From: an uncultured Gammaproteobacteria bacterium
Lineage (GTDB): Bacteria; Patescibacteriota; Microgenomatia; Levybacterales; GWA1-39-11
Assembly: GCA_964427615.1 (NCBI GenBank)
Contig: CAYRUR010000001.1
Coordinates: forward strand, 119,303 to 183,302
Direction: 5' to 3'
Length of the DNA stretch: 64,000 bases
Below are positions 41,139 through 64,000 of this stretch, one piece after another (within the stretch, counting starts at the first letter, position 1; each line of letters begins with the position of its first letter). Below the pieces are notes generated by a model. It had not been told where the DNA came from, searched no databases, and saw nothing but the letters and a program-made list of their open reading frames with translations. A program made the translations under genes and the position numbers.

Positions 41139-42184
41139 AAAAATTTGTTAATAATTTCGAGTAGCTTAAAATTCCAAATTGTTTTATGGGTTTTGCCGAC
41201 AGTATGTAAAAACTCTTTGCGATGTTCTTTATACCAATCATAACTTTCAATGAGAATTTCTTTATTTGATTTGGTAGGAGTAAACCGTAACTGCTTTTTA
41301 GCTTTTTCAATACTGACATAGGAATTAACGGGAAAGGTTTTGTAATGCCAGGCAACAATAGGAGATAAATGCAGTTTTTCCAAAATTGCCAGAGCTGTTT
41401 GGGTAGGCAGTACGGGTAAAGATAAAATTTTGGACTGTGATTTGGCGTGCTTGATAAGTGCTGAGAGATCTTTTTTCCAGGTATCATAGCGATCAGTACC
41501 TACATTGAAAATTTCACCATCTTTTTTAGTAAGGAGCGCAGATTCGATTGCACGACAGAGATCTTGTACTTCAAGGAGTTGGTAGAGGTTATTTCCTTTG
41601 CCTAAAATAAACACGGGCTTATTGTTATATATTGCTTCAAACCACAGGGTAAAAACACCTAGTCGTTCTGGCCCTAAAAATGTTTTGGGACGCAGAATGT
41701 TAAGGGATAATCCTTTTTTATGATATTGAAAGCACAATTTTTCTCCCGCAGCTTTTGATTCTCCATAATAACCGATAGGATAAATTTCGTCTGTCTCTTC
41801 TTCAGGTAATTTTTTGGGTACTCCATACATAGCGGTAGTAGAGATAAAGATAAGTCGTTTTACTTTTTGTTGTAAAGTTGCCTCAAGTACATTTCTGGTA
41901 CCCTTTACATTGACATCAAAAATATACTCTCTATTTTGATGAATAGGTAGTGCTGCTGCAGCATGGACTACGTAGTCTACTCCTTTTGTGGCTGCTAGTA
42001 TTTTTTTCTTATCTCGAATATCAGCTGTAATAACCGTAACTTTTCCTTCTAAGTCTTTGGCAGCAAGTGGAGCAATGTCATAAAGGATGACGTTATACTG
42101 TTGTTTTAAAAAATGGCGAGCCAAATGGGTCCCTAAAAAACCAGTTCCTCCAGTTATTAAAATAGTCTTTTTTCGTTTTGGCAT
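41135..42184 (-). CDS. NAD-dependent epimerase/dehydratase (extended SDR) family protein
   Basis: ILITGGTGFLGTHLARHFL Rossmann motif, and YGESKAAGE (YxxxK). Confidence 0.8.
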   Translation of the reverse strand: MPKRKKTILITGGTGFLGTHLARHFLKQQYNVILYDIAPLAAKDLEGKVTVITADIRDKKKILAATKGVDYVVHAAAALPIHQNREYIFDVNVKGTRNVLEATLQQKVKRLIFISTTAMYGVPKKLPEEETDEIYPIGYYGESKAAGEKLCFQYHKKGLSLNILRPKTFLGPERLGVFTLWFEAIYNNKPVFILGKGNNLYQLLEVQDLCRAIESALLTKKDGEIFNVGTDRYDTWKKDLSALIKHAKSQSKILSLPVLPTQTALAILEKLHLSPIVAWHYKTFPVNSYVSIEKAKKQLRFTPTKSNKEILIESYDWYKEHRKEFLHTVGKTHKTIWNFKLLEIINKFL

Positions 42185-45638: not shown

Positions 45639-46884
45639 TTTCTACTGCATAATTGGTTCCTCTATCCCATGGATAGACTTGTTGCATATTGGCAAGGTAC
45701 ACATTTTGAAGAGGAGTTTTAATAGAAGGAATCATCTTGGAATAATTAACCGGTACAATAGGTTGTGCAAACGGTGCTTTGAAGATATGTGCTTGGATAA
45801 GCGTTTTACGGTAGTCCGTGTTGATCTGTTTTAAGAATGGATCAAAGCGTTTTAATAATTCTTCTGCACTGAGCGAAAAATGAGGATGATTGGCAGGAAG
45901 ATAATTGCCTAAATATACTAAGTGGTCATTGTTGTAATGCTTTTTGTTCATAAAATGCGTGTGTTCTACAATAGCCATCACAGGTGCATTTTTCTGACAA
46001 ATACTGAGCCAATAGGTATTGCTAGGCAAGAATTCTTTTTTAAGTCGCAATACCAGATTGATGGCTCCTAATCCATTAAGTTTTGCCAGTTTTTTACTGT
46101 AGGCAGTAGGAAGGTCAGGAGTTATCTGATCAAAAAGAGCTGAAGGAAGGGTTACTAACACTTTATCAAATTCCTGCACTGTTTTTTTTGTCTTTTTTTG
46201 GGTGTGTACCGTGATTTTATTGCGTTTGGGTTCTATACGAGTTACCTGTGTCTCAAAGTAAAAGGTAGCATTTTTGTTAGATAAAAAAGAGACAAGATGT
46301 TCTGCAAACCGCAGAAAACCACCCTCAGGATAGGCAAGAGAACTGGTTCTTTTTTTGATACGCGCCCAAAACCAGGCAAGTGAAACATCTGTGTGGTAAT
46401 CTCCAAATTTATTGACGAGCTGCGGTTCCCAAATAGTTTTATATGCTTTTTTTCCCATGAGTTTTGGTAGCATAGTTGCTGCATTAACCTGCTCGAGCGG
46501 TTGCCAAAATGGATCAAAGCGTAGTGCTGCCAGAACTCCGGCCATACGTAGGCGCTCAACCAGTGACAACTGAGGAAATGTCAGGATGTGTAAAGGAGAG
46601 TCAAGTTGGAAAATTTGATTATCAAGATAGACTGATGTTTTTGGGCGCTTAATAAGAACAGGATACTGTATGTCTGAGGCTAGTTTGAGAATTGCTTTAT
46701 CATTAGTAAACCAGTGATGATAGTGCTGCTCTAAAGTCCAGTTCCATTTATCAGTTTGAAATCCAAGGGCCAGTCCACCTGCAGTCTTATCTCTTTCAAA
46801 CAGAGTTACGGTGTGCCCTTTTTGAATTAATGTATAAGCAGCTGATAAACCCGTAAAACCGGCTCCAATAATTGCAATATTCAT
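45592..46884 (-). CDS. FAD-dependent oxidoreductase (amine-oxidase/CrtI-like fold; UDP-galactopyranose-mutase-like is possible)
   Basis: N-terminal dinucleotide-binding motif MNIAIIGAGFTGLSAAYTL...LFERDKTAGG. Length 430 aa. Confidence 0.6.
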   Translation of the reverse strand: MNIAIIGAGFTGLSAAYTLIQKGHTVTLFERDKTAGGLALGFQTDKWNWTLEQHYHHWFTNDKAILKLASDIQYPVLIKRPKTSVYLDNQIFQLDSPLHILTFPQLSLVERLRMAGVLAALRFDPFWQPLEQVNAATMLPKLMGKKAYKTIWEPQLVNKFGDYHTDVSLAWFWARIKKRTSSLAYPEGGFLRFAEHLVSFLSNKNATFYFETQVTRIEPKRNKITVHTQKKTKKTVQEFDKVLVTLPSALFDQITPDLPTAYSKKLAKLNGLGAINLVLRLKKEFLPSNTYWLSICQKNAPVMAIVEHTHFMNKKHYNNDHLVYLGNYLPANHPHFSLSAEELLKRFDPFLKQINTDYRKTLIQAHIFKAPFAQPIVPVNYSKMIPSIKTPLQNVYLANMQQVYPWDRGTNYAVEIGEKAAQIMVEDQKA

Positions 46885-46887
46885 GTG

Positions 46888-48303
46888 TTACAGAAGAAAT
46901 AGTATGGTTGCTCCCGTAACTATAAAAACGAGGGAAGCAAAAGTCAAGACAAGTGTTTGAGTCTCTCCTCCTGGCTCATCAATAGGTTGACGAGTAGGAG
47001 CAGTAGTGATGATAGGTGCTGTAGTAGGGGCGGTGGTGATAATAGGCGTAGGCTCCAGGGTAGGTGCCGGAGCTTCAGTTGGCGTAATCTCAATAGTAGG
47101 AACCGCTGTTGGCAGTGGAGTTGGTGTGGCTATAACAGTAGTCGGTGTAGGGGTAGGTACTTCAGTTGGTTGAGCAGAAGGAGTGGCACTGTCCGCAATT
47201 TGAGAGCCTGAGGAAAAAATAGTGACCGTGTGAGTTACTTGTCTGGCAATGCCTATGTTATCCTGTGTTTTGATGGTAATGTCGTGTTCTCCGATTGATA
47301 ATGGAATTTGAGGACGGTAAGACCAGAAGCCTGAGCCGTTGGCAGTAAGAGTAGTCTCTATGGTGCTGTTGGAAATAGAAAGATCTACCTCTTTATAAGG
47401 AACAGCAGTTCCTTGGATACGGGGACGCTCATCAGTCAGTGAGCTTCCATTTGTAGGTGAGGATATTTGAATAGGAGAAAGACGCGTCTTTTTCTCTTCT
47501 GGTACGTCAAAAGAAGCAGAAGGCGTGGCAGTTGTATCATCTTGCTCTGCAATAAAAGCAGTAAAATCATAGTCATTGGTCAAGGTGATAAGGGGAACAG
47601 CAGAAGCATCTTGTACAAAAATAGAAACATTTGACTCAGAGTCTTGTTGCAAAAATTGCAAGTGAACTTTTTCATCTGGATCTATGCTGAAGTACTCTTG
47701 CAAAGATTCATTTCTTATTTCTTGTAGAGAAAAAGTATAGTTTCCCTTTTCATCAGTCAGGGTTGCGATAGGCTGTGAGGAACCAACAGTTGCAATGACG
47801 ACTGTGTCAGTCCCCTCTGCTCCATCAGGTAGTATAAGAGTTCCTGTTATTGTTTGCTCTTTTTGGGTAGAAGGTTGTGCTAATTTTGGAGCAGTACGTG
47901 CCTGATATGGATTTTCCCCATCTAAGAAAACTTTCCCATCAGAGATAATAGAGAAGGAATAGTCAGTATCAGGATCTAGGTTATCAACCGAAATCAGATG
48001 TGAATAATAGGTGGCTTGTGCTCCATTTTTTTCTTTATTTCTCGTATCAAAATAAACTTTGTTCTCTCCATTTTGAGTAAGTTGAATAGCAGCATTTGTT
48101 TTACTAGTGGTGGTAAAAACCACAGTAAAGGATTTTTCCGTAACATTTACCACCCGTACGTATTTTGGTTCTGGTTGGGGAGTCGCTTTGGTAACCACAA
48201 AAACACCTGTCTGTACTACATAAGAAGTTATGGCAATACTACCTACTACCAAAAGGAGTGCAGCAAAGGTTGGAATTCTAATATGCCATATTTTTTTCTT
48301 CAT
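46888..48303 (-). CDS. Cell-surface protein with Ig-like beta domains, a Pro/Thr-rich stalk and a C-terminal transmembrane anchor
   Basis: N-terminal signal/anchor; a long PT-rich linker (TPTPTTVIATPTPLPTAVPTIEITPTEAPAPTLEPTP...); and a C-terminal hydrophobic helix. Confidence 0.45.
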   Translation of the reverse strand: MKKKIWHIRIPTFAALLLVVGSIAITSYVVQTGVFVVTKATPQPEPKYVRVVNVTEKSFTVVFTTTSKTNAAIQLTQNGENKVYFDTRNKEKNGAQATYYSHLISVDNLDPDTDYSFSIISDGKVFLDGENPYQARTAPKLAQPSTQKEQTITGTLILPDGAEGTDTVVIATVGSSQPIATLTDEKGNYTFSLQEIRNESLQEYFSIDPDEKVHLQFLQQDSESNVSIFVQDASAVPLITLTNDYDFTAFIAEQDDTTATPSASFDVPEEKKTRLSPIQISSPTNGSSLTDERPRIQGTAVPYKEVDLSISNSTIETTLTANGSGFWSYRPQIPLSIGEHDITIKTQDNIGIARQVTHTVTIFSSGSQIADSATPSAQPTEVPTPTPTTVIATPTPLPTAVPTIEITPTEAPAPTLEPTPIITTAPTTAPIITTAPTRQPIDEPGGETQTLVLTFASLVFIVTGATILFLL

Positions 48304-48318
48304 ATCTGTTTTTTATTC

Positions 48319-48621
48319 TTATAGTTCTGCAGCTGGTGTGGCTGTTGGTATTTCAGATGTATCGGGAATAGTTTCCTCAGGTGTAGTTGAGGCTGCTTTA
48401 CTAGCTACAGGGCTTTTTTCTTCTAGGTTAGCAGGGATAATTTTTCTACCCGAAAGCGAATTGACAGTTGCAGTATCAAATGAAGGAGCAATGGGTTTGA
48501 TACGGGATGTTGTTTCGGGCAAAATGGTTGATTCAGTAGCACTAAGATAGATAGTAACTACGGTAAAAATTAGTACCATTGCTGCAATAGATGCTGATAA
48601 GTAAAGGATGTTGCGTATCAT
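48319..48621 (-). CDS. Small secreted or membrane-anchored protein
   Basis: 100 aa, N-terminal hydrophobic helix, Thr/Pro-rich. Confidence 0.3.
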   Translation of the reverse strand: MIRNILYLSASIAAMVLIFTVVTIYLSATESTILPETTSRIKPIAPSFDTATVNSLSGRKIIPANLEEKSPVASKAASTTPEETIPDTSEIPTATPAAEL

Positions 48622-49244
48622 GGATTTGGTTTATAAAAATAGGTTCTTCCTGTAATGAGTGCTTCCTGATTTTCTCCAGTTGTGCCGGTAGTAACTCTTT
48701 CTAAGGTAATGATACGGTTAAAATTGATCAGGTCTTGCATAAAAGCATTGATTTGTGTTGTCCCACCTTGTAAAGACATGGTAAAGGTGAATGAAAAAAT
48801 GGATGCATTTTTTTTCACTCCTGGGTATAGTTCTATCGTACCAAAATCAAGCCGTTGTATCGAGAGATTATGGGTTGAGGCCAACATTTCCAATTGACGA
48901 GTCAGGGTAGGAATCTCAGGTGAGGATGGAATAGCATCCTGGATAAGAGTAGCTGTTTGACCCAAACTGGCATATGCACCATCTAATTTTTGCAAAGCTG
49001 CCAGTTTGGTCTCAAGAGCTTCTAGTACTAATTGGCTATCTTCTTTTTGTTTGTTTAGATTTGAGATAGTAGCCAATGTGGGTCTGATAGCAAAAAGAGT
49101 AAAAAATGACACAGTCAAAAGGGATAAAATAATATAAAAGGTTCCCTCAACTCTTTTTTGCTGCTGTTGCTTGAAAATTATTCTGTATTTTTTCCTATAC
49201 AGATTATAATATTTTTTTAATTCTGGTCTTAGTGTACTGATCAT
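48618..49244 (-). CDS. Bitopic membrane protein with coiled coil (PilO/PilN-like architecture)
   Basis: Cytoplasmic basic N-terminus, one transmembrane helix, then coiled coil plus a beta-rich periplasmic domain. Overlaps neighbours by 4 nt. There is no PilM-like gene upstream, so the function is uncertain. Confidence 0.35.
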   Translation of the reverse strand: MISTLRPELKKYYNLYRKKYRIIFKQQQQKRVEGTFYIILSLLTVSFFTLFAIRPTLATISNLNKQKEDSQLVLEALETKLAALQKLDGAYASLGQTATLIQDAIPSSPEIPTLTRQLEMLASTHNLSIQRLDFGTIELYPGVKKNASIFSFTFTMSLQGGTTQINAFMQDLINFNRIITLERVTTGTTGENQEALITGRTYFYKPNP

Positions 49245-50231: not shown

Positions 50232-51878
50232 ATGGTAAGAGATCTTTTCAGGAAAAGCCTGAGTGCCTTAACAGCAAAGCAGACCAATATATTTTCCGCA
50301 GCATTCTATATTTTTGCCACCACCATTCTGGCGCAGCTTCTAGGTATTTTTAAGTACAGACTTTTGGTCTCTGTATTTGGAGCTTCAGATAATCTTGGTG
50401 TTTTTTTTGCTGCTTTTAGGATTCCTGATGTTATTATGCAAGTTTTAATTACTGCTGCTGTTTCTTCAGCATTTATCCCTCTTTTTTCTGATTTTTTAGT
50501 TAAAGATAAGAAGGAAGAAGCCTATTCATTTACCTCCACTCTTATCACATTAGGTCTTGTAGCCTACATTGTTATTGCGCTGTTTGTGTCTATTTTTGCT
50601 CAACAGCTTTCAATGCTTATTGCGCCTGGTTTTTCTCCTGCACAGCTAGAGTTGATGACTCAACTTACGCGTATTATTTTGCTTTCTCAGGTATTCATGA
50701 TTTTAGGAACAGTAGTAACTGCAGTTCTGCAGTCTTTTCAGCATTTCTTAATTCCGGGAATTGCTGCTGCACTGTATAACTTAGGTATTATTGTAGGGTT
50801 GCTTCTTTTTACGCCTCTTTTTGGTATTTATGGAGCTGCAATAGGTGTGGTTTTAGGATCTGTTCTTTTTTTCCTTTTCCAGCTTCCGTTAATGAAGGGC
50901 TCTTGGTCTATTTTTAAGCCACGGTTTGCATTTACCACGGAAATTAAAAAACTATATGCACTTTCTATTCCCAGAGGTCTTACTCTTTTAGTAGTGGGAC
51001 TTGGTTCTATGGTGAGTGTTTTTTTTGCTTCCTTTATTTCTCCTAAAAGCTATGTGTATTTTGATCTTGCCCAAACCTTGATGCTTGCACCAGTACTTCT
51101 TTTTGGGCAATCAATTGCACAAGCTAGTTTTCCAGCACTTGCTCAAAAAGTGCATGATAAAAAAGAGTTTGTATCTATTTTCTTAAGTTCTTTTGGTCAA
51201 ATTGTGTATTTAACGTTGCCGGTTAGTGTGCTTTTTATTGTGTTGCGTATTCCTTTAGTCCGTTTGTTTTATGGTGCATCTCGCTTTGACTGGGAAGCAA
51301 CTGTTGCTACTGGTATGACTCTTTCTTTTTTTGCTTTGTCTATTTTTGCCCAAGCTCTCATTTATTTATTCTCACGGGTATTTTATGCGTATAAAGATAC
51401 CAAAACACCACTCATTGTTACAGTCGGCTCCATTGGTATTTATATTTTCTTAGCATACATATTTATTTTGGTAGGTGGTCAATCAATTCACTATTTAGCC
51501 TTTTCTTATTCGGTGGCTAATATTTTTAGTGTTATCGTCCTGTTGTGGTATGTAAATAAGAGAATTGAGTTGCCGAAATGGTTGATGGTAAAAGATTTTA
51601 TAAAAATTGCAGTTGCAACTATTATTATGGGAATTTGTTTGTATATTCCTATCAAGTTGTTGGATCAGCTTGTTTTTGATACGACTCGTACTATCAATCT
51701 TATGATGCTTACCGGTATTGCCTCAGCTGCTGGATTTGCTGCATTCATTTTTTTCACCTGGTTACTTAATATTAAAGAAGCATATGTGATTATTGCTGTT
51801 TTAAAGAAATTTGGGAAATGGGATAAGATGCTTAAGCAACTCCGTGAGCCAATTGAGGGTTCACGCCTCAATCCCTAA
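50232..51878 (+). CDS. murJ: Lipid II flippase MurJ (MviN)
   Basis: 548 aa with 14 predicted transmembrane helices. The N-terminal region SAAFYIFATTILAQLLGIFKYRLLVSVFGASDNLGVFFAAFRIPD...AFIPLFS is typical MurJ. Confidence 0.85.
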   Translation: MVRDLFRKSLSALTAKQTNIFSAAFYIFATTILAQLLGIFKYRLLVSVFGASDNLGVFFAAFRIPDVIMQVLITAAVSSAFIPLFSDFLVKDKKEEAYSFTSTLITLGLVAYIVIALFVSIFAQQLSMLIAPGFSPAQLELMTQLTRIILLSQVFMILGTVVTAVLQSFQHFLIPGIAAALYNLGIIVGLLLFTPLFGIYGAAIGVVLGSVLFFLFQLPLMKGSWSIFKPRFAFTTEIKKLYALSIPRGLTLLVVGLGSMVSVFFASFISPKSYVYFDLAQTLMLAPVLLFGQSIAQASFPALAQKVHDKKEFVSIFLSSFGQIVYLTLPVSVLFIVLRIPLVRLFYGASRFDWEATVATGMTLSFFALSIFAQALIYLFSRVFYAYKDTKTPLIVTVGSIGIYIFLAYIFILVGGQSIHYLAFSYSVANIFSVIVLLWYVNKRIELPKWLMVKDFIKIAVATIIMGICLYIPIKLLDQLVFDTTRTINLMMLTGIASAAGFAAFIFFTWLLNIKEAYVIIAVLKKFGKWDKMLKQLREPIEGSRLNP

Positions 51879-53711: not shown

Positions 53712-54791
53712 TTATAAAGTAAACAGGAAGATGCCTCCTAGAACAGTAAGTAGGATTCCTCCAATAACACCAATGGTTGTAGCAACACTACCAGTAGCCG
53801 GAAGGGTTGGTTTTGCAGTATCCGTAGGCGCAGTAGGAGCTTGGGTAGGCTCTTCAGTTGGAGCCCCAGCTGCTACACTAATTGTTTGAGTACAGGACTG
53901 GCTAATGGCTCCTTTGTCATCTGTGAAGACAACAGATGCGTTAAATGTTCCCATATTCTGATAGGTATGTGTAACTTGTGAGCTGACAGTAGCAATATTC
54001 ATGCCGTCAGTTACATCTTGTGCTTGTCCATCACCAAAATCAAACGTTGCTTTACTAATAAGTCCATCTGAGTCAGATCCATTGGCTGAAAGTGTAACAG
54101 AAAGTGGTGCAGAACCTGATGCTTGAGGGGCAACCAGCAAATTGGTACAAACTGGTGCATTATTTAAGTCACTTACTTGTGTGGTAGGAGATGGGATGAT
54201 ACTAGGAGAGGGTGCAGGTGTGGTAGAGGGAGTAGCACCTTGTAAAACAGTAACATTGGCAGGTGAGGCATTGGCTAGCACATTTTCTCCTGCTTGATCA
54301 TCTGAGGAAAGAGATAAGACTTGGGTCGCACCAGGATCAAAGGTCACCTGTATGGCCTGTCCTCCTGTCTCTTGCAGGGCTTTAAAAGTTACTACCGCAA
54401 CATCAGTAGGAGCTTGAATGGCTTTGGTGACATCAGAACCAATACCCAGAGAAATAACAGTACTTCCTGAGGTAATAGTGGGTCCTTCAAGGGTAAGTGG
54501 AAATGAGGTGGAAGGAGTTATTGTAACCACTTCCAATTTTTGTGGGTCATAGAGTAAATTGAATTTTACATAGGACACAATATTTTTCCCAGGATCAAGA
54601 CGCACGGTAATAGGAAACTCTTCTCCTGCTGATATAGTAGAGTCAGGAGGAGTAAGCGTAAGGGTGCTGGTAGGAGCAGCTTGGGTACGTACATCTTGCT
54701 GCTGTTTTACAAAGTACATCGTTAGTGGGATGCTAATAAGGAGAAGGGCAATAACACCCAGAAAAAAATATTTATTGGCTACATTTTTCAT
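53712..54791 (-). CDS. Surface protein with cohesin/PKD-like domains and a C-terminal LPATG motif followed by a hydrophobic segment (sortase-type sorting signal)
   Basis: N-terminal signal/anchor. FDFGDGQ PKD-like motif. C-terminal ...AKPTLPATGSVATTIGVIGGILLTVLGGIFLFTL. Confidence 0.5.
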   Translation of the reverse strand: MKNVANKYFFLGVIALLLISIPLTMYFVKQQQDVRTQAAPTSTLTLTPPDSTISAGEEFPITVRLDPGKNIVSYVKFNLLYDPQKLEVVTITPSTSFPLTLEGPTITSGSTVISLGIGSDVTKAIQAPTDVAVVTFKALQETGGQAIQVTFDPGATQVLSLSSDDQAGENVLANASPANVTVLQGATPSTTPAPSPSIIPSPTTQVSDLNNAPVCTNLLVAPQASGSAPLSVTLSANGSDSDGLISKATFDFGDGQAQDVTDGMNIATVSSQVTHTYQNMGTFNASVVFTDDKGAISQSCTQTISVAAGAPTEEPTQAPTAPTDTAKPTLPATGSVATTIGVIGGILLTVLGGIFLFTL

Positions 54792-55000
54792 GTTTTAAGG
54801 CAAGGATACTATAAAATAGCGTAGATGATTTTACGTGGTAAGTCAATAAGCTTGCCCTGTCAGAATAAGCTAATAGATTTAGATTATGAACATAAGGTAA
54901 AGATAACAGGAAAAATATTATAGGTTATTGACAAGAATTTTAAATTCTTGTAATATTTTAGCACTTAGACATTTTAATTGATAGAATTCTTTTAGAGATT

Positions 55001-55303
55001 ATGGCAACAACAGCAAACAACCTAAAGCCGCTTTTTACCAATGTACTGATAAAACCAGTAGAAGCTGAAGCAACCACTGCAAGTGGTATTGTCCTTCCTG
55101 ATACTGCACAAGAAAAACCACAAATGGGTATTATTATGGCAGTTGGTGAGGGAGATACTACTGCTGAAGGAAAAAAAATTGAAATGAAAGTAAAGGTTGG
55201 ACAAAAAGTAGTATACAAAAAGTGGGGAGGCAATGAAGTCAAAGTAGGAACAGAAGAATGGACAATTATTGATCAACGTGATATCTTAGCAATTGTAGAA
55301 TAA
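55001..55303 (+). CDS. groES: Co-chaperonin GroES
   Basis: LKPLFTNVLIKPVEAEATTASGIVLPDTAQEKPQMGIIMAVGEG is the typical Cpn10 pattern. Lies 15 nt upstream of groEL. Confidence 0.9.
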   Translation: MATTANNLKPLFTNVLIKPVEAEATTASGIVLPDTAQEKPQMGIIMAVGEGDTTAEGKKIEMKVKVGQKVVYKKWGGNEVKVGTEEWTIIDQRDILAIVE

Positions 55304-56992
<1,689 letters not shown>

Positions 56993-57062
56993 TAAGTAGT
57001 GCTGTACTTTTCCTCAGAAAACTCTTCCTTATTTTTCCTTAATTTTTTACAATATATCTTGT

Positions 57063-57869
57063 ATGACTGATTCTCATTGTCATTTAAATTTTGAAGCCTT
57101 TTCAACCGATGTTGAGGAAGTAATTAAGCGAGCTCAAGACGCAGGAGTAAAAAGAATTGTCAATGTCGGCACAAAATTAGACTCAAGCAAATGGGCGGTA
57201 GATTTAGCTCATCAGTATCAAGGACTTCTGGCTATTGTCGGTATTCACCCACACCACGCTGATAAAGTAGAAAAAGGTTGGGAAAAAGAACTTAAAAATC
57301 TGGCACAAGATACAAAAGTCATTGCTATTGGAGAAATTGGACTTGATTATTTTAGTTATAAATCAAATGGTGTGGTAGATCCTAAAGTGCAAAGAGAGGT
57401 TTTTGAAACACAAATTGCTCTAGCTCACTCATTGCATCTTCCACTTCAAATTCATACCCGTCTGGCTTGGGATGATGTGTACGAAGTATTATCTTCTCAT
57501 CGTAATATATTGCAAAGCGTTCCCGGTATGTTTCATTGTTTTTCAGGAGACATTGCTTTTTTAAAGAAGGTCTTGGACTTAGGGTTTTATGTAGGGTTTG
57601 ATGGAAATGTTACTTACCCTGGGGTGCCAAAAGGAGAAACAACTGCTATAAAAGAGCTTGCATTATATGCTCCTGCTGATAGAATACTAATAGAAACAGA
57701 TAGCCCTTATTTGACGCCTGTGCCTATGCGTGGATTAAGAAATGAGCCAAAGCATGCTATAATTGTGGCAGAGTATCTTGCTAAGCTAAAACAAATCCCA
57801 TATCAAGATTTCTGTTATCAGCTGGAGAACAATTTTGAAACATGTTTTGCGTTAAAAGGAGAACAGTAG
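57063..57869 (+). CDS. tatD: TatD-family metal-dependent DNase/hydrolase
   Basis: DSHCHLNF start, and the HxH / E / H / H / D metal-ligand pattern (IGEIGLDY, HCFSG, IETDSPYL). Confidence 0.85.
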   Translation: MTDSHCHLNFEAFSTDVEEVIKRAQDAGVKRIVNVGTKLDSSKWAVDLAHQYQGLLAIVGIHPHHADKVEKGWEKELKNLAQDTKVIAIGEIGLDYFSYKSNGVVDPKVQREVFETQIALAHSLHLPLQIHTRLAWDDVYEVLSSHRNILQSVPGMFHCFSGDIAFLKKVLDLGFYVGFDGNVTYPGVPKGETTAIKELALYAPADRILIETDSPYLTPVPMRGLRNEPKHAIIVAEYLAKLKQIPYQDFCYQLENNFETCFALKGEQ

Positions 57870-57872
57870 TGT

Positions 57873-59369
57873 ATGATGTACGATTTTTTTGATAATTTTT
57901 TTCAGAGGCATCCGGTAAAATCAATTCGATTGTTGGAGATTATTCCTCCGGTTGCTTCTCTTTTTTTAATTAGCCTTCCGTTTTGGGGCTCTTTAGTATT
58001 TCCTATTTTTGTTGCCTACTTTATTATTTTCTTTGATATCTACTGGCTGTATAAATCATTTACGTTGGCAGTATACTCTTACTTTGGAACGCGTAAAGTA
58101 AACGAGGCAGAAAAAGCTGACTGGTTGGCCAAAGCTAAAGGTTGTAACAACTTTGAAAAAATACATCATATTATTGTTATTCCCAATTACAAAGAAAAAA
58201 TAGAAAAGTTGCGGGAAACACTTGAGACTCTAAAGTTACAAACCTTTCCTCATAAAAGAATTCATATTTTTCTTGCTATGGAAAATCGGGAGAAAGAAGC
58301 TTCTCAAAAAGCAAGAACCTTACAAAAAGAATTTCAAAATGACTTTGGAGGAGTATATTACACCATGCATCCTATCAAAAAAGGTGAAGTAGCAGGTAAA
58401 TCATCAAATCAAGCATATGCTGCTCGAAGAGCTTATGAGACTCTTGTTGCAGAGAAAAAATTAGACATCAATTACCTTACGATTTCCTCAACTGATGCTG
58501 ATGCCAAATTTGATCCTCAATACTTTGCCTATCTTTCTTATGGTTTTCTGACAAGTGAAGAACCTCATTTGCGTATTTGGCAGTCTGCCATTGTTTTTTA
58601 TAATAACTTTTGGCAAGTACCTTCCTTTACTCGGATTATCTCATTTTTTGGTAGCCTATGGAGAACAGCACTCTTGCTGCAGCAAGTAAAACTCTTGCCT
58701 CATGCTACTTACTCACTATCATTTAAACTCTTAAAAGATATTGGTTATTGGGATACTGATGTGATCCCAGAAGATTACCGAACCTTTTTTAAAGCCTTTT
58801 TTAAAACACAAGGAAAGGTGGAGGTTGAGCCCATTTTTCTCAAAACGTCTGTTGATGCTGCTCAGTCTTCCACTTATAAAAGCAGTCTTATGAATCGATA
58901 TCATCAAGAAAGAAGATGGTCATGGGGAGTCTCAGACGTAGCAGTGTATTTTAAATGGGGGTTGACGGTAAAGGGAGTTTCTTTTTGGCGCAAGGCTTTT
59001 CTACTGGGAAATGTGTTAAGTGACCATGTCTTGTGGCCTGCGTACTGGTATATTATTACGATTTCTGCAAACTTAGTCGTTATCTTTAACCCAGTATTTA
59101 GTAGAACAAGTTTGGGATACATGTTGCCTCGTGTTTCTGGTCTTATTTTAACGGTCTGTTTGCTTTCTTTACTTATTATGATTTATGTTGATTATATCTT
59201 GCAGGCGCGTCATACAAAGCCATCCAAAGTGCGCAGGCTTATTTTTCCTTTTGAATTTTTACTCATGCCAGTTGCAGGATTTTTTCTTTCCTCTCTCCCT
59301 GCACTTATTTCCCATGTACAGCTTATTATGGGAAAACGGCTTGAATATAAAGTTACTGAAAAAGTATGA
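57873..59369 (+). CDS. Membrane-embedded GT2-family (GT-A fold) glycosyltransferase
   Basis: N-terminal transmembrane helices; IVIPNYKEKIEKL...; TISSTDADAKFD (DxD); QxxRW-like RRWSWG; and C-terminal transmembrane helices. The architecture resembles processive or integral GT2 synthases. Confidence 0.55.
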   Translation: MMYDFFDNFFQRHPVKSIRLLEIIPPVASLFLISLPFWGSLVFPIFVAYFIIFFDIYWLYKSFTLAVYSYFGTRKVNEAEKADWLAKAKGCNNFEKIHHIIVIPNYKEKIEKLRETLETLKLQTFPHKRIHIFLAMENREKEASQKARTLQKEFQNDFGGVYYTMHPIKKGEVAGKSSNQAYAARRAYETLVAEKKLDINYLTISSTDADAKFDPQYFAYLSYGFLTSEEPHLRIWQSAIVFYNNFWQVPSFTRIISFFGSLWRTALLLQQVKLLPHATYSLSFKLLKDIGYWDTDVIPEDYRTFFKAFFKTQGKVEVEPIFLKTSVDAAQSSTYKSSLMNRYHQERRWSWGVSDVAVYFKWGLTVKGVSFWRKAFLLGNVLSDHVLWPAYWYIITISANLVVIFNPVFSRTSLGYMLPRVSGLILTVCLLSLLIMIYVDYILQARHTKPSKVRRLIFPFEFLLMPVAGFFLSSLPALISHVQLIMGKRLEYKVTEKV

Positions 59370-60883
59370 ATAGAGCAAAATCTTTCTTAGGGAAAAAAGC
59401 ACAATTTTTACAAAAGGAAGTTGTGTTTTTACCTCTTTGCCTTATTACCTTTATTTTTCTGCGAATGCCTTCTTTATGGGAACCTGCTTGGTATGGGGAT
59501 GAGGCAATTTATCAAGTGATTGGGATGGCACTTAATGAGGGAAGAGTGTTATATCTTGATATTTGGGACAACAAACCCCCTCTTTTGTACTGGATATACG
59601 CCTTTGCCCATGCTGATCTTTTTTCAGTGAAGTTATTATCTCTTTTAGCTGGATTACTTTCTGTTATTGTTTTTTTCTTGTTGGCAAAGGTGGTGCTCAA
59701 GAAAACACCGGCAGTTTATCTAGCAACAGCAGTGTACAGCGTATTATTTGGCCTACCCTTATTAGAAGGCAATATTGCTAATGCAGAAAATTTTATGCAT
59801 CTTCCTATTTTTCTTGCTTTTTTTATATTACTTTTTTCCTTGCAAAAAATATCAGGTCGATCTTATACCAAAAAGTTGTTTTTTCCTTTTGCGTTTGCCG
59901 GGTTATTATTATCAATTGCGTTTAGTATTAAAATAGTGGCTCTTTTTGATTTTTTGGCACTTTTTATCATGGCTTTTACCATGATGCTTCCTGAAAAAAT
60001 ATCCCTGCAAAGTATTACAAAAATGGTGTGGGAAAAAGGTCACCTTTTTCTTATTTTTCTTTTATCTTTTACTGTTACGCCACTTCTTTTTATACTTTAT
60101 TTTGCTTATCATCATGCTTTGGCTGAGTATTTGGCAGGGGTATATTTTTCCAATGTTGGTTATGTAAATGTAGAAAATCATTTTATTATCCCGCTGGGAC
60201 TGGTGAGTATTAAAGCAATAGTAGCTTTTATTGCCATAGTGTTAGTAGTCTTGTCTCGTAAAAGACTGTCCATGAGTGGTCTGGTGATTTACATTTGGTG
60301 TATCTTTTCTCTTTTTAGTACCTTTTTTTCTGATAGACCTTACACCCATTACATGTTGATGTTTCTCCCTGCATTTTCTTTGCTTTTAGGTTATGTAATA
60401 CAAGTAAAGAAAAAAGCACAAATAGTTGCTATGAGTATCGTAGTAGGGAGTACAGTGCTTCTTTGGTGGCAGTTTCCTTTGTATACTAAAGTGGGTGCTT
60501 ACTATCAAAATGCGGTTGATTTTGTTCTTCGTACCAAGTCAGTTGAAGCATACCAAGCCTTTTTTGATGCCAGTACTCCTCAAGATTATGCACTTGCTCA
60601 ATTTATTCAAAGTTACACTACAAAAAACGATACTATATTTGTGTGGAGCGATCATGCTCAAATCTATTCGTTATCAGATAAGCTGCCTCCTGGAAAATAT
60701 GCAGTTGCATATCACATTACGTTTTATGAGAATGCTCTCAAACAAACACAAGATGTTTTATCTTTCACTCGTCCTAAGTTAATTATTCAAACTAAAAACA
60801 CGCCTGAAATAAAATACTTTTTGCCAGGATATCGTTTACAGTATAAAATGGGAGAAGCTTTAATTTATGAAAGAGAAATTTAA
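59366..60883 (+). CDS. ArnT/PMT-like GT-C glycosyltransferase (polyprenyl-phosphate-sugar dependent)
   Basis: First-loop acidic motif PAWYGDEAIYQVIGMAL...DIWDNKPPLLYW, typical of ArnT/GT39/GT83 enzymes. About 12 transmembrane helices. Confidence 0.55.
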   Translation: MNRAKSFLGKKAQFLQKEVVFLPLCLITFIFLRMPSLWEPAWYGDEAIYQVIGMALNEGRVLYLDIWDNKPPLLYWIYAFAHADLFSVKLLSLLAGLLSVIVFFLLAKVVLKKTPAVYLATAVYSVLFGLPLLEGNIANAENFMHLPIFLAFFILLFSLQKISGRSYTKKLFFPFAFAGLLLSIAFSIKIVALFDFLALFIMAFTMMLPEKISLQSITKMVWEKGHLFLIFLLSFTVTPLLFILYFAYHHALAEYLAGVYFSNVGYVNVENHFIIPLGLVSIKAIVAFIAIVLVVLSRKRLSMSGLVIYIWCIFSLFSTFFSDRPYTHYMLMFLPAFSLLLGYVIQVKKKAQIVAMSIVVGSTVLLWWQFPLYTKVGAYYQNAVDFVLRTKSVEAYQAFFDASTPQDYALAQFIQSYTTKNDTIFVWSDHAQIYSLSDKLPPGKYAVAYHITFYENALKQTQDVLSFTRPKLIIQTKNTPEIKYFLPGYRLQYKMGEALIYEREI

Positions 60884-61220
60884 AATACTAACCAGTGACA
60901 AAACTATCAAATATTCACTTATCGTGTCAATAATTGTGTGGTTATTAGCAACAGTAATGATTGCTGTTTTACAAACCATGTTGCCACCACTTATTCCTTT
61001 TTTTAACAGCATGCCATGGGGAGAAGAACGGCTTGCTAGTTCCTGGTGGGTTTTGTCTTTACCTGTTATTTTTTTATGTATTCTGGTTGCCAATTATATT
61101 CTCAGCGGATTTTTTTATAAAAATCATCCTTTAATGGCGCGTTTACTCGTTTTTAATGCTTTGCTTTTTTTGCTACTGGGATTGCTCGCTTACTTGCAAA
61201 TTGTATTCCTGGTATTATAA
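60867..61220 (+). CDS. Small three-helix membrane protein
   Basis: 117 aa, hydrophobic. Overlaps the upstream gene by 17 nt. Confidence 0.35.
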   Translation: MKEKFKILTSDKTIKYSLIVSIIVWLLATVMIAVLQTMLPPLIPFFNSMPWGEERLASSWWVLSLPVIFLCILVANYILSGFFYKNHPLMARLLVFNALLFLLLGLLAYLQIVFLVL

Positions 61221-61225
61221 ATACT

Positions 61226-62281
61226 ATGCAACCTATTTTTATTCTGTCGCTTTTTGCCTCCTTTTTTATAACTGCTTGTCTTATTCCATTAACCATACGC
61301 TTCGCTAAAAAGTACCAGCTAATTGATGACCCAAAGAAGCGTGTTCATCCTGCTGCTGTGCATACCAAACCTATTCCCCGAGCAGGTGGGTTGGCTATTT
61401 ACCTCGGCATATTGGGTGCTAGTCTTATTTTTCTTCCTTTTGATAGAATATTTGGCTCTATTCTTTTTGCTGGAGCTTTAGTTGTTATAGTTGGATTGTT
61501 GGATGATAAATATGATTTATCTCCTTACTTACGGTTTTTAACGAATATTTTTGCTGCTTCTTTTGTGGTATTTCAAGGGATTACGGTCCCTTACATTACC
61601 AATCCTTTTGGCGGATTTTTGGAGTTTGCTAATATGCAGATTTCACTGTTTGGTATGTCTGTATTTTCACTTCCAGCAATTCTTGCGATAGTGTGGATTG
61701 TTTGGGTGATGAATATGCTTAATTGGAGTAAAGGGGTAGACGGACAGATGCCAGGTATTGCAGCAGTTGCTGCTATCGTAATTGGCATAGCCTCACTTCG
61801 TTTTGATACGCTCGCTATGTTGAACATACACACAGCAGTCTTAGCCTTTATTGTGGCGGGAGCTTCCTTAGGCTTTTTACTTTTCAATGTGTATCCTGCG
61901 CGGATTTTTCCTGGGTATAGTGCCACAATTCTGGGCTTTGTTATTGGTATTCTTGCTATTCTTTCGAGTGTAAAATTAGCCACGGCGCTGCTTGTTATGG
62001 GAGTGCCAGCTGCAGATGCTTTATTTACGGTAGTAAGAAGAGTTTTATCCAAGAAATCACCTTTTTGGCACGATAGGGGACATTTACATCATCATCTGCT
62101 CAATTTAGGTTGGGGACATCGGCAGATTGCCTTTTTTTACTGGTCAGTTTCTGTTCTTTTAGGCGTTATAGCACTAAATCTTAGCAGTAAAGGGAAGTTA
62201 TTTGTTATAATCTTAGTGTTGGTTATGGTAACAGGTGGTATCATAGGTTTGAAGATTTTTTTGAAGCAAAAACACACATAA
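61226..62281 (+). CDS. Polyprenyl-phosphate N-acetylhexosamine-1-phosphate transferase (MraY/WecA family)
   Basis: GLLDDKYDL (DDxxD), NMLNWSKGVDGQ, and VYPARIFPG motifs. 351 aa with about 10 transmembrane helices. Confidence 0.75.
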   Translation: MQPIFILSLFASFFITACLIPLTIRFAKKYQLIDDPKKRVHPAAVHTKPIPRAGGLAIYLGILGASLIFLPFDRIFGSILFAGALVVIVGLLDDKYDLSPYLRFLTNIFAASFVVFQGITVPYITNPFGGFLEFANMQISLFGMSVFSLPAILAIVWIVWVMNMLNWSKGVDGQMPGIAAVAAIVIGIASLRFDTLAMLNIHTAVLAFIVAGASLGFLLFNVYPARIFPGYSATILGFVIGILAILSSVKLATALLVMGVPAADALFTVVRRVLSKKSPFWHDRGHLHHHLLNLGWGHRQIAFFYWSVSVLLGVIALNLSSKGKLFVIILVLVMVTGGIIGLKIFLKQKHT

Positions 62282-63226
62282 ATGGAGAAATCGTATTGGT
62301 TTTATGTTTTTAAGCTCTTGCGCCCACGTCAATGGATTAAGAACTTGGCGCTTTTTGCAGCGATTGTTTTTGGTGAATTGCTTTTTGATGTTCCCACTCT
62401 TTTTCAGGTATCTTTAGGGTTTTTTGCCTTTTGTTTTCTTTCCTCAATTACCTATATTATCAATGATATTTTTGATGTAAAAAAGGATCGATTGCATCCC
62501 TTCAAAAAGAATCGACCGATTGCCAGTGGTAAAGTTGCGATTAAAGAGGCTGTTTTTATTCTCCTCATTTTAGTGTTAGGAGTTGTGGTAACTGCAGCTT
62601 CTCTTCCACCTGCTTTTTGGCTAATTGCTCTGTTATATCTGGCTATTCAATTTCTGTACTCTTTCTTTTTTAAGGCAGTAGTTATTTTTGATATTTTTAC
62701 CATTGCGACAGGATATATTTTACGTGTTTTGGCAGGGGAGATAATTACTGGGTACCATATTTCTGTCTGGCTGTTGCTTACCACCATTGCATTGTCACTC
62801 TTTTTGGCAGTAGCAAAAAGAAGGTCTGAACTCACTTTGCTAAAAAGTGTTAAAAGTACTGATATTGCAGAGATTAGAAAAAGTCTTTCTCATTACTCAG
62901 AAGGATTGTTGGATGCTTTCTCTGCAATGTTTGCTACTGCTACTTTTATTTTTTACTCAATGTTTACTTTTTTGGAGAACCCAACAGGCGTAAAAATTAA
63001 CTTAACAGTATTGTTGCCTGATTTTCTGCCATACTATTTACAAAGAAAATGGTTGATGATTACTATCTTTCCCGTAATTTATGGGCTGATGAAGTATTTG
63101 CAAGATGTTTATGAAAAAAATGAAGGAGAAAGTCCTGATAGAGTCATCCTTGCAGATAAATCATTACTTGCTTCAGTAGTACTGTGGGCGTTTCTCGTAA
63201 TTGTTATTATTTACTTTATTGGCTAG
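62282..63226 (+). CDS. UbiA-family decaprenyl-phosphate phosphoribosyltransferase (DPPR synthase)-like enzyme
   Basis: LRPRQWIKNLALFAA...YIINDIFDVKKDRLHPFKKNRPIASG...IRKSLSHYS closely parallels the mycobacterial Rv3806c pattern (IRPRQWVKN...YLVNDVRDVEADREHPTKRFRPIAAG...IRKSLESYT). Confidence 0.7.
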   Translation: MEKSYWFYVFKLLRPRQWIKNLALFAAIVFGELLFDVPTLFQVSLGFFAFCFLSSITYIINDIFDVKKDRLHPFKKNRPIASGKVAIKEAVFILLILVLGVVVTAASLPPAFWLIALLYLAIQFLYSFFFKAVVIFDIFTIATGYILRVLAGEIITGYHISVWLLLTTIALSLFLAVAKRRSELTLLKSVKSTDIAEIRKSLSHYSEGLLDAFSAMFATATFIFYSMFTFLENPTGVKINLTVLLPDFLPYYLQRKWLMITIFPVIYGLMKYLQDVYEKNEGESPDRVILADKSLLASVVLWAFLVIVIIYFIG

Positions 63227-64000
63227 TTTTTGTTGCATAGCGACTACTGATCCATCCAGTAGTATTTTCATCTACTTGTATTTGGTACCAGCCGGTTTGT
63301 TCTTCTAAAAGGGTATATGTTTCTCCTGGTTTTACTTGAGTAATCTCAGAGGAGGAAAGTGAAGCACCACTTCTGACCCGCAGAAAACCAGTAGGAGTGT
63401 CAGAGATGGTCACCTTTTCTTGGTCGTCTTCAATCGACGTTGGAGTGGGTGTGGGCTCTTGAGTGGGGCCAGCAGATTTAAGAATTTCTTCAGTATTACC
63501 TTCTGTTCCTAAGGTTACATTCACAACCACTTTGTAGCCTTCTATGGTTTTGACGCGTAACGTTTTTTTGCTAAACCCCTGTTTTTGGATTTCTATTTCA
63601 TGTTCGGAAGGGGGGATTTTTTTCTGCAAGTAAGGTGTTGCTCCTGAAGGAATGCCATCAATTAATACCATAGCTCCTTCTGGAATAGAGCTAACTAAAA
63701 TCTGTGCATCTTTTGAACCCGCTTTTTCCAAGGTGATAGTAGAAGTACTGGCCAAGGATCCAGGCAAAAAGATTCTTTCTACTGCAGTAAGCAGATCTGG
63801 TTTTACCTCCACTTTGGTAATGAAAGGAGTCATGCTGTTATCTTGGGGAACGAGTTTTATTTCGTATTCTCCTGCTTTAATGGTGTTGTTTTGCTCACAC
63901 TTACAAAAAGGCGTTTCACCTATTTCTTTACCATTAAGAAATACAGTGCTTTTGATGTTAGCAGTAACTTGTAGTCCTCCTTTTTGAGCAGGCCGTAACA
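63216..64000 (-). CDS. PEGA-domain / SH3b-domain secreted protein (3' part; ORF runs off the window end)
   Basis: PEGAMVLIDGIPSGATPY PEGA motif, and a C-terminal GWYQI...GWIS SH3b-like region. The frame stays open upstream to nt 64000, with a second PEGA-like segment. Confidence 0.55.
   Translation of the reverse strand, partial: LRPAQKGGLQVTANIKSTVFLNGKEIGETPFCKCEQNNTIKAGEYEIKLVPQDNSMTPFITKVEVKPDLLTAVERIFLPGSLASTSTITLEKAGSKDAQILVSSIPEGAMVLIDGIPSGATPYLQKKIPPSEHEIEIQKQGFSKKTLRVKTIEGYKVVVNVTLGTEGNTEEILKSAGPTQEPTPTPTSIEDDQEKVTISDTPTGFLRVRSGASLSSSEITQVKPGETYTLLEEQTGWYQIQVDENTTGWISSRYATKTSQ

Follow-up and report, generated by a model that had tools for sequence, protein, structure and literature searches.

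A conserved Microgenomates operon with a polyprenyl-phosphate 5-phosphoribosyltransferase, and the pentofuranose pathway that it probably serves

Introduction

What might a member of the candidate phyla radiation (CPR, or Patescibacteria) make with an operon that includes a homolog of the first enzyme of the mycobacterial decaprenylphosphoryl-arabinose (DPA) pathway? The question is raised by five genes at positions 57873-63226 of a stretch of 64,000 nucleotides (the window) of contig CAYRUR010000001.1, from the Levybacterales of the Microgenomates, in which an initial annotation saw an arabinan-like signature. The envelopes of CPR bacteria are almost unknown, because few members have been cultured, and a search of the literature on CPR or Patescibacteria for decaprenylphosphoryl-5-phosphoribose (DPPR) synthase, decaprenyl or glycosyltransferases of the GT-C fold (GT-Cs) found nothing relevant. 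The analysis presented here indicates that the block is probably the core of a Microgenomates-wide cell-envelope glycan pathway around a lipid-linked pentofuranose donor. The pathway is of a familiar kind, met here in a new lineage and with uncommon partner genes, and does not amount to a new kind of system.

The five-gene operon

The window has a G+C content of ~37%, and the closest similarity of its proteins is to those of Candidatus Levybacteria. The block consists of the following genes:

57873-59369, + strand: integral family 2 glycosyltransferase (GT2), 498 residues
59366-60883, + strand: GT-C, 505 residues
60867-61220, + strand: sm117, a small membrane protein of 117 residues, absent from the initial annotation
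61226-62281, + strand: GT4, an MraY/WecA-family protein of 351 residues
62282-63226, + strand: UbiA protein, 314 residues

The genes overlap or nearly abut. GT2 and GT-C share 4 nucleotides and GT-C and sm117 share 17, a gap of 5 nucleotides separates sm117 from GT4, and GT4 is followed by UbiA with no gap at all. This tight spacing of five co-directional genes argues for one transcription unit, in agreement with the operon annotated initially. A scan of positions 54800-64000 for promoter and terminator consensus sequences gave counts close to the shuffled expectation and was uninformative.

The UbiA protein is almost certainly a polyprenyl-phosphate 5-phosphoribosyltransferase

By Pfam, the UbiA protein matches the UbiA superfamily only. 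The NCBIfam models are more discriminating: three decaprenyl-phosphate phosphoribosyltransferase models match at 226.8 (NF008977), 197.8 (NF008978) and 147.7 bits, and PRK08238, a model of HAD-fused proteins resembling polyprenyl-phosphate 5-phosphoribosyltransferase (PPPRS), matches at 170.8 bits, whereas the best model of a genuine prenyltransferase reaches 55.9 bits. The curated cutoffs are 234 for NF008977 and 207 for NF008978; the window protein lies slightly below both, and two of its orthologs (in loci L050 and L066 of the set described below) lie above them. The sole strong match in the PDB is Rv3806c (8j8j, E=1.7e-34), with 36% identity across Rv3806c residues 17-240.

The cryo-EM work on Rv3806c (PMC10994848) allows a comparison residue by residue. 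In that enzyme the lipid phosphate is bound by K28, Y157, and K191; the 5-phosphate by K28, Y70, and Y157; the ribose by N73 and Q135; and Mg2+ by N73 and D77, while R22, K87, R90, Y138, K143, and K208 contact the pyrophosphate. The phosphoribose sites are not conserved among ordinary UbiA prenyltransferases (PMC10994848). When the window protein is aligned with Rv3806c, all 14 sites compared are identical: R22 (R14 in the window protein), K28 (K20), Y70 (Y58), N73 (N61), D77 (D65), D81 (D69), K87 (K75), R90 (R78), Q135 (Q123), Y138 (Y126), K143 (K131), Y157 (Y145), K191 (K179), and K208 (K200). Ten of these 14 residues are invariant across 83 UbiA orthologs. The position of Y157 alternates between Tyr and Phe in the orthologs, as it does in some mycobacteria.

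With the DPPR synthase profiles far ahead, the Rv3806c match, and the 14 shared residues, the UbiA protein is almost certainly an Rv3806c-type PPPRS, of the DPPR-synthase type that had been proposed for it. As such, it is predicted, almost certainly, to transfer ribose-5-phosphate from phosphoribosyl pyrophosphate (PRPP) to polyprenyl phosphate at the cytoplasmic face of the membrane. Some of these genomes already carry an automatic PPPRS annotation. Some source annotations of the orthologs read "4-hydroxybenzoate polyprenyltransferase" instead, but an ordinary aromatic or heme prenyltransferase (menaquinone, ubiquinone, heme O) is effectively refuted by the distance between the profile scores and by the presence of every residue that sets Rv3806c apart from the UbiA prenyltransferases (K28, Y70, Q135, Y157, R22, K87, R90, and K143). 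Since placement in a quinone or heme subfamily failed, the PPPRS assignment stands.

Conservation across the Microgenomates

Relatives of the UbiA protein were collected by a scan of one genome per species, which found more than 570, and the best 80 loci (designated by L and a number) were examined. These come from Levy-, Collier-, Davies-, Curtiss-, Gottesman-, Shapiro-, and Cerribacteria and from WWE3, with UbiA identities that fall from 68% to 41%. Two further genes border the operon:

57063-57869, + strand: TatD-family metal-dependent hydrolase, whose stop lies 3 nucleotides before the GT2 gene
63216-63833, - strand: wall-binding protein with PEGA and SH3b domains (PF08239, 6e-16; PF08308, 3e-10)

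The second of these is convergent with UbiA, overlaps it by 11 nucleotides, and occupies the same position in most of the 80 loci. Gene order was counted in the 68 loci whose sequence extends 6.5 kb or more upstream of UbiA. The GT4 gene is adjacent in 65, an sm117-like gene is present in 61, GT2 also in 61, TatD in 58, and the GT-C in 46. The string of genes is composed of two modules, TatD-GT2 and (GT-C)-sm117-GT4-UbiA. In Curtissbacteria (L044, 1151-6978; L051, 1718-6983), genes for DUF2079, a GH18 protein, an S11 DD-carboxypeptidase, and an extra PMT_2 GT-C stand between the two; the presence of the chitinase-like GH18 beside the synthase hints at a polymer that contains N-acetylglucosamine. 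The locus is flanked by the genes for LepA, GroES/EL, CysS, and HrcA-GrpE-DnaK, and this embedding among housekeeping genes indicates a core locus, not a variable island.

Two side observations concern these relatives. One Levybacteria lineage has a gene for an MFS transporter directly after UbiA (L001, 11002-12177; L002, 1388-2563), possibly a lineage-specific flippase or exporter. In addition, some of the relatives (L010, L013, L015, L019, and ~25 others) carry the labels "uncultured Gammaproteobacteria" or "Pseudomonadales", which look like artefacts, because the gene order and the identities match those of named Microgenomates loci.

The partner genes of the operon

The GT-C had been placed in an operon with UbiA by the initial annotation, and its 505-residue product indeed has a confident GT-C fold in the predicted structure. 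By Pfam the protein is PMT/PMT_2-like. Its N-terminus is 31% identical over 91 residues (E 4e-4) to a Halostagnicola GT-C, and it is encoded together with a PPPRS, as are the GT-Cs of the three-component pentofuranose systems discussed below. The prediction for the GT-C is that it works outside the membrane, with a polyprenyl-phosphate-sugar as donor.

GT2 gives a weak Pfam match (E=0.0075), and its orthologs carry PF13632. The AlphaFold2 model (pLDDT 83.7) is more informative. Its top Foldseek matches in the PDB are hyaluronan synthase (HAS; 8smn, 9yq5) and BcsA (5ej1, 4p00), followed by chitin synthases (E~1e-8); the matches are full-length, with modest TM-scores of 0.44-0.56. The residues D208xD210, [E/D]300-D301, and Q345xxR348W349 are invariant in 69 orthologs. 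A D/DxD/ED/QxxRW signature marks a processive synthase that also exports its polymer. By fold and motifs, then, GT2 is of the integral processive synthase type, similar to hyaluronan, cellulose, chitin, or poly-N-acetylglucosamine (PNAG) synthases, and the earlier reading of an integral-membrane GT2 holds. GT2 has the fold and the motifs of BcsA, class I hyaluronan synthase, chitin synthase, and PgaC/IcaA, and the same topology, in which the GT-A domain lies between transmembrane (TM) helices, but its sequence identity to them is just ~11-16%. Unlike BcsA- and PgaC-type synthases, it lacks a PilZ, BcsB, or PgaD-type partner.

The TatD protein (PF01026, 2.1e-78; TIGR00010, 267.5 bits against a cutoff of 206) is a bona fide member of the TatD family and may be a housekeeping nuclease or phosphoesterase. 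Its gene adjoins GT2 in 59 of 63 related loci, and there is no TatD gene wherever GT2 is absent. That it might act as 5'-phosphatase on the PPPRS product has some appeal, since nuclease-like phosphoesterases (PHP, EEP) are encoded in other PPPRS clusters. This role is kept here as a low-probability idea: the gene co-varies with GT2 and not with UbiA, and its product is a bona fide TatD.

GT4 belongs to a well-known family and departs from it at the active site. The protein matches PF00953 at 3.5e-24, and a profile of 22 orthologs matches MraY structures at 3e-19. Shared with MraY, WecA, and GPT are the Pfam GT4 domain, the DD motif (D93-D94), the second Asp of DGxDG (D172), and the HxHH motif (H286xH288H289). 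The Asp of the MraY "MGD" motif (D265 of MraY_AA), however, is replaced by Y231; among 82 sequences this position is Tyr in 52, Phe in 25, and Asp in four, all of the last from Curtissbacteria. Likewise, the first Asp of NxxNxxDGxDG (D193 of MraY_AA) is replaced by K169, with Lys in 63 and Ser in 13 of the 82 sequences. Both substitutions are seen whether the single sequence or the profile is aligned to three MraY structures. Nevertheless, 33 positions are invariant in 22 orthologs, among them D264, R272, and K250. By its profile matches, GT4 is a divergent member of the polyprenyl-phosphate N-acetylhexosamine-1-phosphate transferase (PNPT) family with an atypical active site. The "WecA/MraY initiator" of the initial annotation thus keeps its family, while a plain initiator role is not secure, two canonical acidic residues being replaced.

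The GT4 gene adjoins UbiA in 78 of 82 loci, and a positional ortholog of sm117 lies directly before GT4 in 61 of 68. The sm117 protein has three TM helices, with the N-terminus predicted inside and a conserved loop, LPPxIPxFxSxPWGE, predicted outside; it has no Pfam match even at E=10. Its family comprises 577 clusters at 50% identity in public data, and all 150 clusters listed are stand-alone proteins of ~90-170 residues, with no fusions among them. Since it travels with the GT4-UbiA pair, sm117 could be a flippase or an accessory subunit. Identification as a GtrA-like flippase was rejected, given no Pfam match at E=10 and no fusions among the 150 listed clusters, and a subunit of the IcaD/PgaD kind is less likely, because sm117 stays with GT4-UbiA when GT2 is absent.

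The upstream block

A second set of envelope genes lies upstream in the window:

37178-38365, + strand: LCP glycopolymer-to-peptidoglycan ligase (PF03816, 2.2e-34)
38362-40512, - strand: large membrane protein, DUF2298/Chlor_Arch_YYY (TIGR03662, 527 bits)
40569-41138, - strand: hyp189, a probable divergent HAD-type phosphatase, 189 residues with HAD motifs
41135-42184, - strand: extended short-chain dehydrogenase/reductase (SDR; PF01370, 7.7e-47)
42257-43942 and 43935-45638, - strand: pair of PMT_2-type GT-Cs, u1 and u2 (PF13231, 2e-12 and 1.4e-9)
45592-46884, - strand: flavin adenine dinucleotide (FAD)-dependent oxidoreductase, amine-oxidase/CrtI-like, PRK07233 (NF005560, 404.7 bits; PF01593, 1.9e-25)
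46888-48303, - strand: fn3/Ig-like surface protein, which almost always precedes the FAD gene

A metagenome scan with the FAD protein recovers a conserved block, fn3-FAD-[GT-C, GT-C]-[SDR]-hyp189-DUF2298-LCP, in which DUF2298 and LCP follow the FAD gene at variable distance; in 24-28 of 48 loci, this conserved pair closes the block. The two GT-Cs are paralogs, 27% identical to each other, and are probable consumers of the lipid-linked pentose. The FAD protein, a constant component of the block, finds only Rossmann-motif matches in the PDB, with no close solved structure. Its likeness to CrtI and HpnE suggests that it may act on the lipid carrier.

The initial annotation had set this LCP, GT-C, and FAD block beside the UbiA operon, and several arrangements elsewhere bear out the link and indicate that it belongs to the same pathway. 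Within 6 kb downstream of the UbiA operon of L035 come an SDR gene (64% identical), hyp189, DUF2298, and LCP. In L067 UbiA stands among four GT-Cs, an ALG10-like protein, and DUF2298; DUF2298 adjoins UbiA, and hyp189 is divergently adjacent to it. In L046, DUF2298 is found upstream. In three metagenomic loci a PPPRS paralog lies directly between the FAD gene and the GT-Cs (L089, 11316-12221; L091, 7690-8595; L106, 11386-12291). This paralog has 301 residues, is ~44% identical to the window UbiA protein, and has DPPR synthase models as its best profiles; its substrate-binding residues are largely kept, with His in place of Q135 and K208 not conserved.

The SDR provides a further connection. An SDR encoded next to a PPPRS in Halostagnicola matches it at 37% identity across the entire protein (E=2e-78), and the SDRs of the pNGR234a PPPRS cluster and of Streptomyces sp. 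SAT1 match it at 32% and 34%, respectively; its best PDB matches, NSDHL and GalE-type enzymes, stand at ~1e-21. PPPRS homologs occur on 103 of 72,556 plasmids, including those of Lactococcus, Vibrio, rhizobia, Streptomyces, and haloarchaea. Among the 15 plasmids with an SDR homolog at E<=1e-30, a PPPRS gene lies within ~6 kb in at least 11 and within 700 bp in six, and the same SDR subfamily adjoins a PPPRS in haloarchaea, Streptomyces, Nonomuraea, and rhizobia. Judged by sequence, the SDR is a member of a PPPRS-dedicated subfamily common to archaea, actinomycetes, rhizobia, and CPR, and it is a candidate epimerase or oxidoreductase for polyprenyl-phosphate-ribose.

The hyp189 protein begins with IGFDFDKVF, and D6xD8xV, S/T81, K120, and D134-D136, which correspond to HAD motifs I-IV, are present in all 14 orthologs. 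Profile matches are weak and not significant (Acid_phosphat_B, 0.025; HAD_2, 0.081). Its gene occurs in 11 of the 14 loci in which the u1/u2 GT-Cs lie between the FAD and DUF2298 genes and in one of the 15 in which they do not (Fisher p=1e-4, not corrected for phylogeny). The SDR gene occurs only where both hyp189 and the u1/u2 GT-Cs are present. Together, motifs and co-variation make hyp189 a candidate 5'-phosphatase for the PPPRS product.

Comparison with characterised and related systems

The closest characterised precedent is the work of Kelly et al. (2024; PMC11127046) in Citrobacter. There, a PPPRS and a HAD phosphatase yield undecaprenyl-phosphate-ribofuranose (Ribf), a flippase exports the lipid, and a GT-C adds the sugar outside the membrane; systems with no epimerase add Ribf, an SDR (ORF13) leads to xylofuranose (Xylf), and DprE1/DprE2 lead to arabinofuranose (Araf) (PMC11127046). 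The set of PPPRS, phosphatase, flippase, and GT-C, with or without an SDR epimerase, has thus been characterised experimentally (PMC11127046), and within this framework a PPPRS with a GT-C outside the Corynebacterineae is not new in itself. The novelty that the initial annotation attached to such a pathway was therefore overstated, given these three-component systems and the PPPRS homologs on 103 plasmids. The window system fits best among the three-component pentofuranose systems that Kelly et al. described, as a variant with distinct accessory proteins.

The C. youngae O1/O2 systems (ORF15-ORF14-ORF12, with or without ORF13; PMC11127046) and the window system both have a UbiA-type PPPRS that uses PRPP (by prediction in the window), a GT-C (PMT/PMT_2-like by Pfam in the window), and an extended SDR as partner, which might decide which pentose is made; the HAD-type phosphatase of C. 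youngae has in the window a candidate counterpart, separate instead of fused and supported by motifs. They differ in several respects. The window system has no recognisable MATE, SMR, or GtrA flippase, and it is coupled to an atypical PNPT, the 3-TM sm117, a HAS-like synthase, and TatD. In addition, it is a clade-wide core locus among housekeeping genes, whereas the C. youngae genes form a serotype-variable O-antigen module.

The mycobacterial DPA pathway (Rv3806c, Rv3807c, DprE1/DprE2, Emb/Aft, WecA, Lcp1) has a homologous first enzyme and the same logic, in which a lipid-linked pentose is used by GT-Cs outside the membrane and the product is attached by LCP proteins. Unlike that pathway, the window shows no DprE1, DprE2, PAP2 phosphatase, or Emb/Aft-type GT-Cs among the larger open reading frames (ORFs) scanned.

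Other clusters combine a PPPRS with varied partners. The uncharacterised clusters of haloarchaea (Halostagnicola, Haloterrigena), Streptomyces sp. SAT1, and the pNGR234a plasmid include an SDR of the same subfamily, 32-37% identical to that of the window. The haloarchaeal clusters encode GT39, a PMT-like GT-C, the SDR, the PPPRS, a PHP phosphoesterase, and LPG_synthase_TM; the Streptomyces cluster encodes the SDR, the PPPRS, a GT2, an EEP phosphoesterase, a second GT2, and LPG_synthase_TM. The rhizobial clusters have a HAD::PPPRS fusion, an NAD oxidoreductase, a 658-residue protein, a GMC flavoenzyme, an SMR protein, and an SDR, and the Vibrio cluster has a HAD::PPPRS fusion, EamA, and a 486-residue membrane protein. 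As a side observation, PHP or EEP phosphoesterases stand where a 5'-phosphatase would be expected in the haloarchaeal and Streptomyces clusters (L169, 8890-9570; L171, 7919-8599; L170, 10025-11401), an arrangement that echoes TatD at the head of the CPR gene string.

A monoderm parallel is found on the Lactococcus cremoris plasmid pF27D, which encodes a 462-residue hypothetical protein (possibly a GT-C), a PPPRS, a 187-residue HAD-IB protein, GtrA, and an LCP protein. A separate HAD protein of ~187 residues and an LCP protein thus accompany the PPPRS there, and the window has a HAD-like protein of 189 residues and an LCP protein. However, pF27D has a GtrA flippase, which has no tblastn match in the window, and the pF27D HAD protein is not detectably homologous to hyp189 by hhalign. 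By tblastn, neither the window nor 165 related loci contain a homolog of any accessory protein of these comparators other than the PPPRS and the SDR. This suggests that the CPR version keeps PPPRS and SDR and fills the phosphatase and flippase steps with unrecognised proteins.

The proposed pathway and its alternatives

The pathway that is probably centred on the block would proceed as follows. At the cytoplasmic face, the PPPRS (62282-63226) would transfer ribose-5-phosphate from PRPP to polyprenyl phosphate. The 5'-phosphate would then be removed, with the HAD-like (40569-41138) and TatD-like (57063-57869) proteins as candidates, and the PPPRS-associated SDR (41135-42184) might epimerise the ribose. 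Once flipped across the membrane, perhaps by the 3-TM protein (60867-61220), the lipid-linked pentose would be used on the outside by the GT-Cs (59366-60883 and the pair at 42257-45638), which would decorate or extend a wall glycan. Most likely, the HAS/BcsA-like GT2 would polymerise and export a beta-linked backbone, and the atypical MraY/WecA-like protein (61226-62281) would supply a lipid-linked primer. Finally, attachment of the product to peptidoglycan would fall to the LCP enzyme (37178-38365).

Several findings weigh against this scheme. The fold of the operon GT-C is closest to mannosyltransferases and is silent on the donor, and the gene is missing from the operon in 22 of the 68 loci (Collier- and Daviesbacteria), so the donor of the GT-C need not be the PPPRS product. 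In all but the Curtissbacteria, GT4 is without the Mg-binding Asp of MraY and GPT, which makes the primer role uncertain. In the window, 15-20 kb separate the operon from the block with the SDR, HAD-like, and GT-C genes. By hhalign, hyp189 shows no significant match to the HAD domains known to be linked to PPPRS, and in view of the weak profile support its HAD assignment is a matter of motifs. GtrA, SMR, EamA, and LPG_synthase_TM have no tblastn match in the window or the 165 related loci, no MATE, SMR, or GtrA family is found by Pfam in the operon, and no recognised flippase of the pathway was found in the window or those loci; MurJ (50232-51878) and the 3-TM sm117 are the flippase candidates left in the window. 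PAP2, PHP, and EEP phosphatases were likewise not found in this set of sequences. We know of no Microgenomates isolate for wall analysis.

The alternative that survives best, although we consider it unlikely, is that the envelope genes are co-located and serve no single pathway: GT2 (with TatD) would make an independent exopolymer, the operon GT-C would use another donor such as a polyprenyl-phosphate-hexose, and the PPPRS would serve only GT-Cs encoded elsewhere. The two modules do part in some genomes, with the unrelated genes of L044 and L051 inserted between them, no GT2 gene is nearby in L046, L054, and L069, and the loci in which the operon has no GT-C point the same way. Moreover, CPR genomes retain much housekeeping synteny, and GroEL, LepA, CysS, and DnaK flank this block. 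Against this reading stand the overlaps, which as translational coupling link all five genes, and the preservation of the order down to ~41% UbiA identity in several class-level lineages. When UbiA is found outside the operon, it is repeatedly beside GT-Cs (L067, L089, L091, and L106).

A second alternative keeps the single pathway and makes it truly arabinan-like. Here, polyprenyl-phosphate-ribose would be 2'-epimerised to polyprenyl-phosphate-Araf and polymerised by the GT-Cs on a WecA-primed, LCP-attached polymer, with the FAD protein and the SDR as non-orthologous stand-ins for DprE1 and DprE2. This is doubtful. Most of the enzyme classes called for do have comparable members in the window (PPPRS, HAD-like protein, FAD oxidoreductase, SDR, GT-Cs, PNPT, and LCP), the flippase having no counterpart; the FAD gene is directly beside the PPPRS paralog in three loci, and rhizobial PPPRS clusters also pair a flavoenzyme other than DprE1, from the GMC family, with SDRs. 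The specifically mycobacterial components, however, are missing. Among 51 of the larger ORFs of the 64-kb window, Pfam, with NCBIfam for selected ORFs, detected neither DprE1 (FAD_binding_4/ALO) nor DprE2 (adh_short), the partners suggested in the initial annotation as a check, and Pfam detected no PAP2 phosphatase and no Emb or Aft domains. The ortholog neighbourhoods are likewise without DprE1/DprE2. The GT-Cs are structurally closer to ALG3, PMT, and ArnT than to Aft or Emb.

The distribution of the two candidate stand-ins also speaks against an arabinan. The FAD gene persists in loci that lack the SDR, the HAD-like gene, and the GT-Cs u1/u2, and in the haloarchaeal and Streptomyces clusters the SDR of the PPPRS-dedicated subfamily is accompanied by no flavoenzyme. 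A single GalE-like epimerase would therefore suffice there, and the FAD enzyme of the window may act otherwise. In the Citrobacter study, systems with an SDR only correlate with Xylf and those with DprE1/E2 correlate with Araf (PMC11127046). Of the "arabinan-like" description, the enzyme classes thus hold and the arabinan is overstated. The mycobacterial route to Araf is disfavoured by the lack of DprE1/E2 and by the presence of just one dedicated SDR, both of which are still compatible with a one-enzyme 2-epimerase; in the proposed lipid-linked pentofuranose pathway the final sugar would be Ribf, Xylf, or Araf.

A third, highly improbable alternative has the atypical PNPT act on the product of the PPPRS, for example by using the 5-phosphate of polyprenyl-phosphate-ribose-5-phosphate as nucleophile to form a new lipid-linked primer. 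Such a reaction would explain the lack of a dedicated phosphatase in the operon. It would also suit the zero gap between GT4 and UbiA and their adjacency in 78 of 82 loci, the loss from GT4 of the Mg-binding Asp and of the first DGxDG Asp despite strong constraint (the 33 invariant positions), and the travelling of the 3-TM sm117 with the GT4-UbiA pair. But the idea is conjecture with no precedent, the Curtissbacteria orthologs retain the Asp, which suggests an ordinary ancestral chemistry, and neither the UbiA of L067 nor the FAD-adjacent paralog has a GT4 with it.

The probable lipid-linked pentofuranose pathway can be extended, tentatively and at long odds, into a more specific picture. The Microgenomates would then possess a core, clade-wide, peptidoglycan-anchored wall polymer that bears pentofuranose (ribo-, xylo-, or arabino-), made with unrecognised accessory proteins: a 3-TM flippase or coupling subunit, a HAD- or TatD-like 5'-phosphatase, and an Asp-less PNPT that perhaps acts on the phosphoribosyl-lipid.

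The conserved operon yields a concrete prediction about Microgenomates wall chemistry, namely a lipid-linked pentofuranose donor, several GT-Cs, and an LCP ligase, and it defines candidate surface epitopes relevant to host attachment. It also widens the parts list of pentofuranose glycosylation drawn up in 2024 by a PPPRS-dedicated SDR subfamily, sm117, and the Asp-less PNPT.

Other features of the window

Five ORFs of 462-1199 residues have no Pfam match (E<=1e-3 or 1e-4): 3923-7522 (+), 7571-9397 (-), 15265-16665 (+), 20859-22712 (-), and 32190-33578 (-). A Tad4 (type I Thoeris inhibitor) domain, a phage-type anti-defence domain in a CPR chromosome, is encoded at 17714-18460 (-; PF25186, 8.8e-28), and a free-standing ORF resembling LAGLIDADG_3 homing endonucleases lies at 29374-30147 (-; 2.6e-11). 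Components of pili or secretion systems are scattered through the window: a protein with a T4SS-pilin domain (1596-2534, -), a TrwB/VirD4-like coupling ATPase (26259-28658, -), and a PilO-like protein (48618-49244, -). Finally, the window encodes an LPXTG-anchored surface protein with cohesin and PKD domains (53712-54791, -) and a FemAB-family peptidyl transferase (33581-34618, -), both of which would fit a wall of the Gram-positive type that has sortase substrates and interpeptide bridges.

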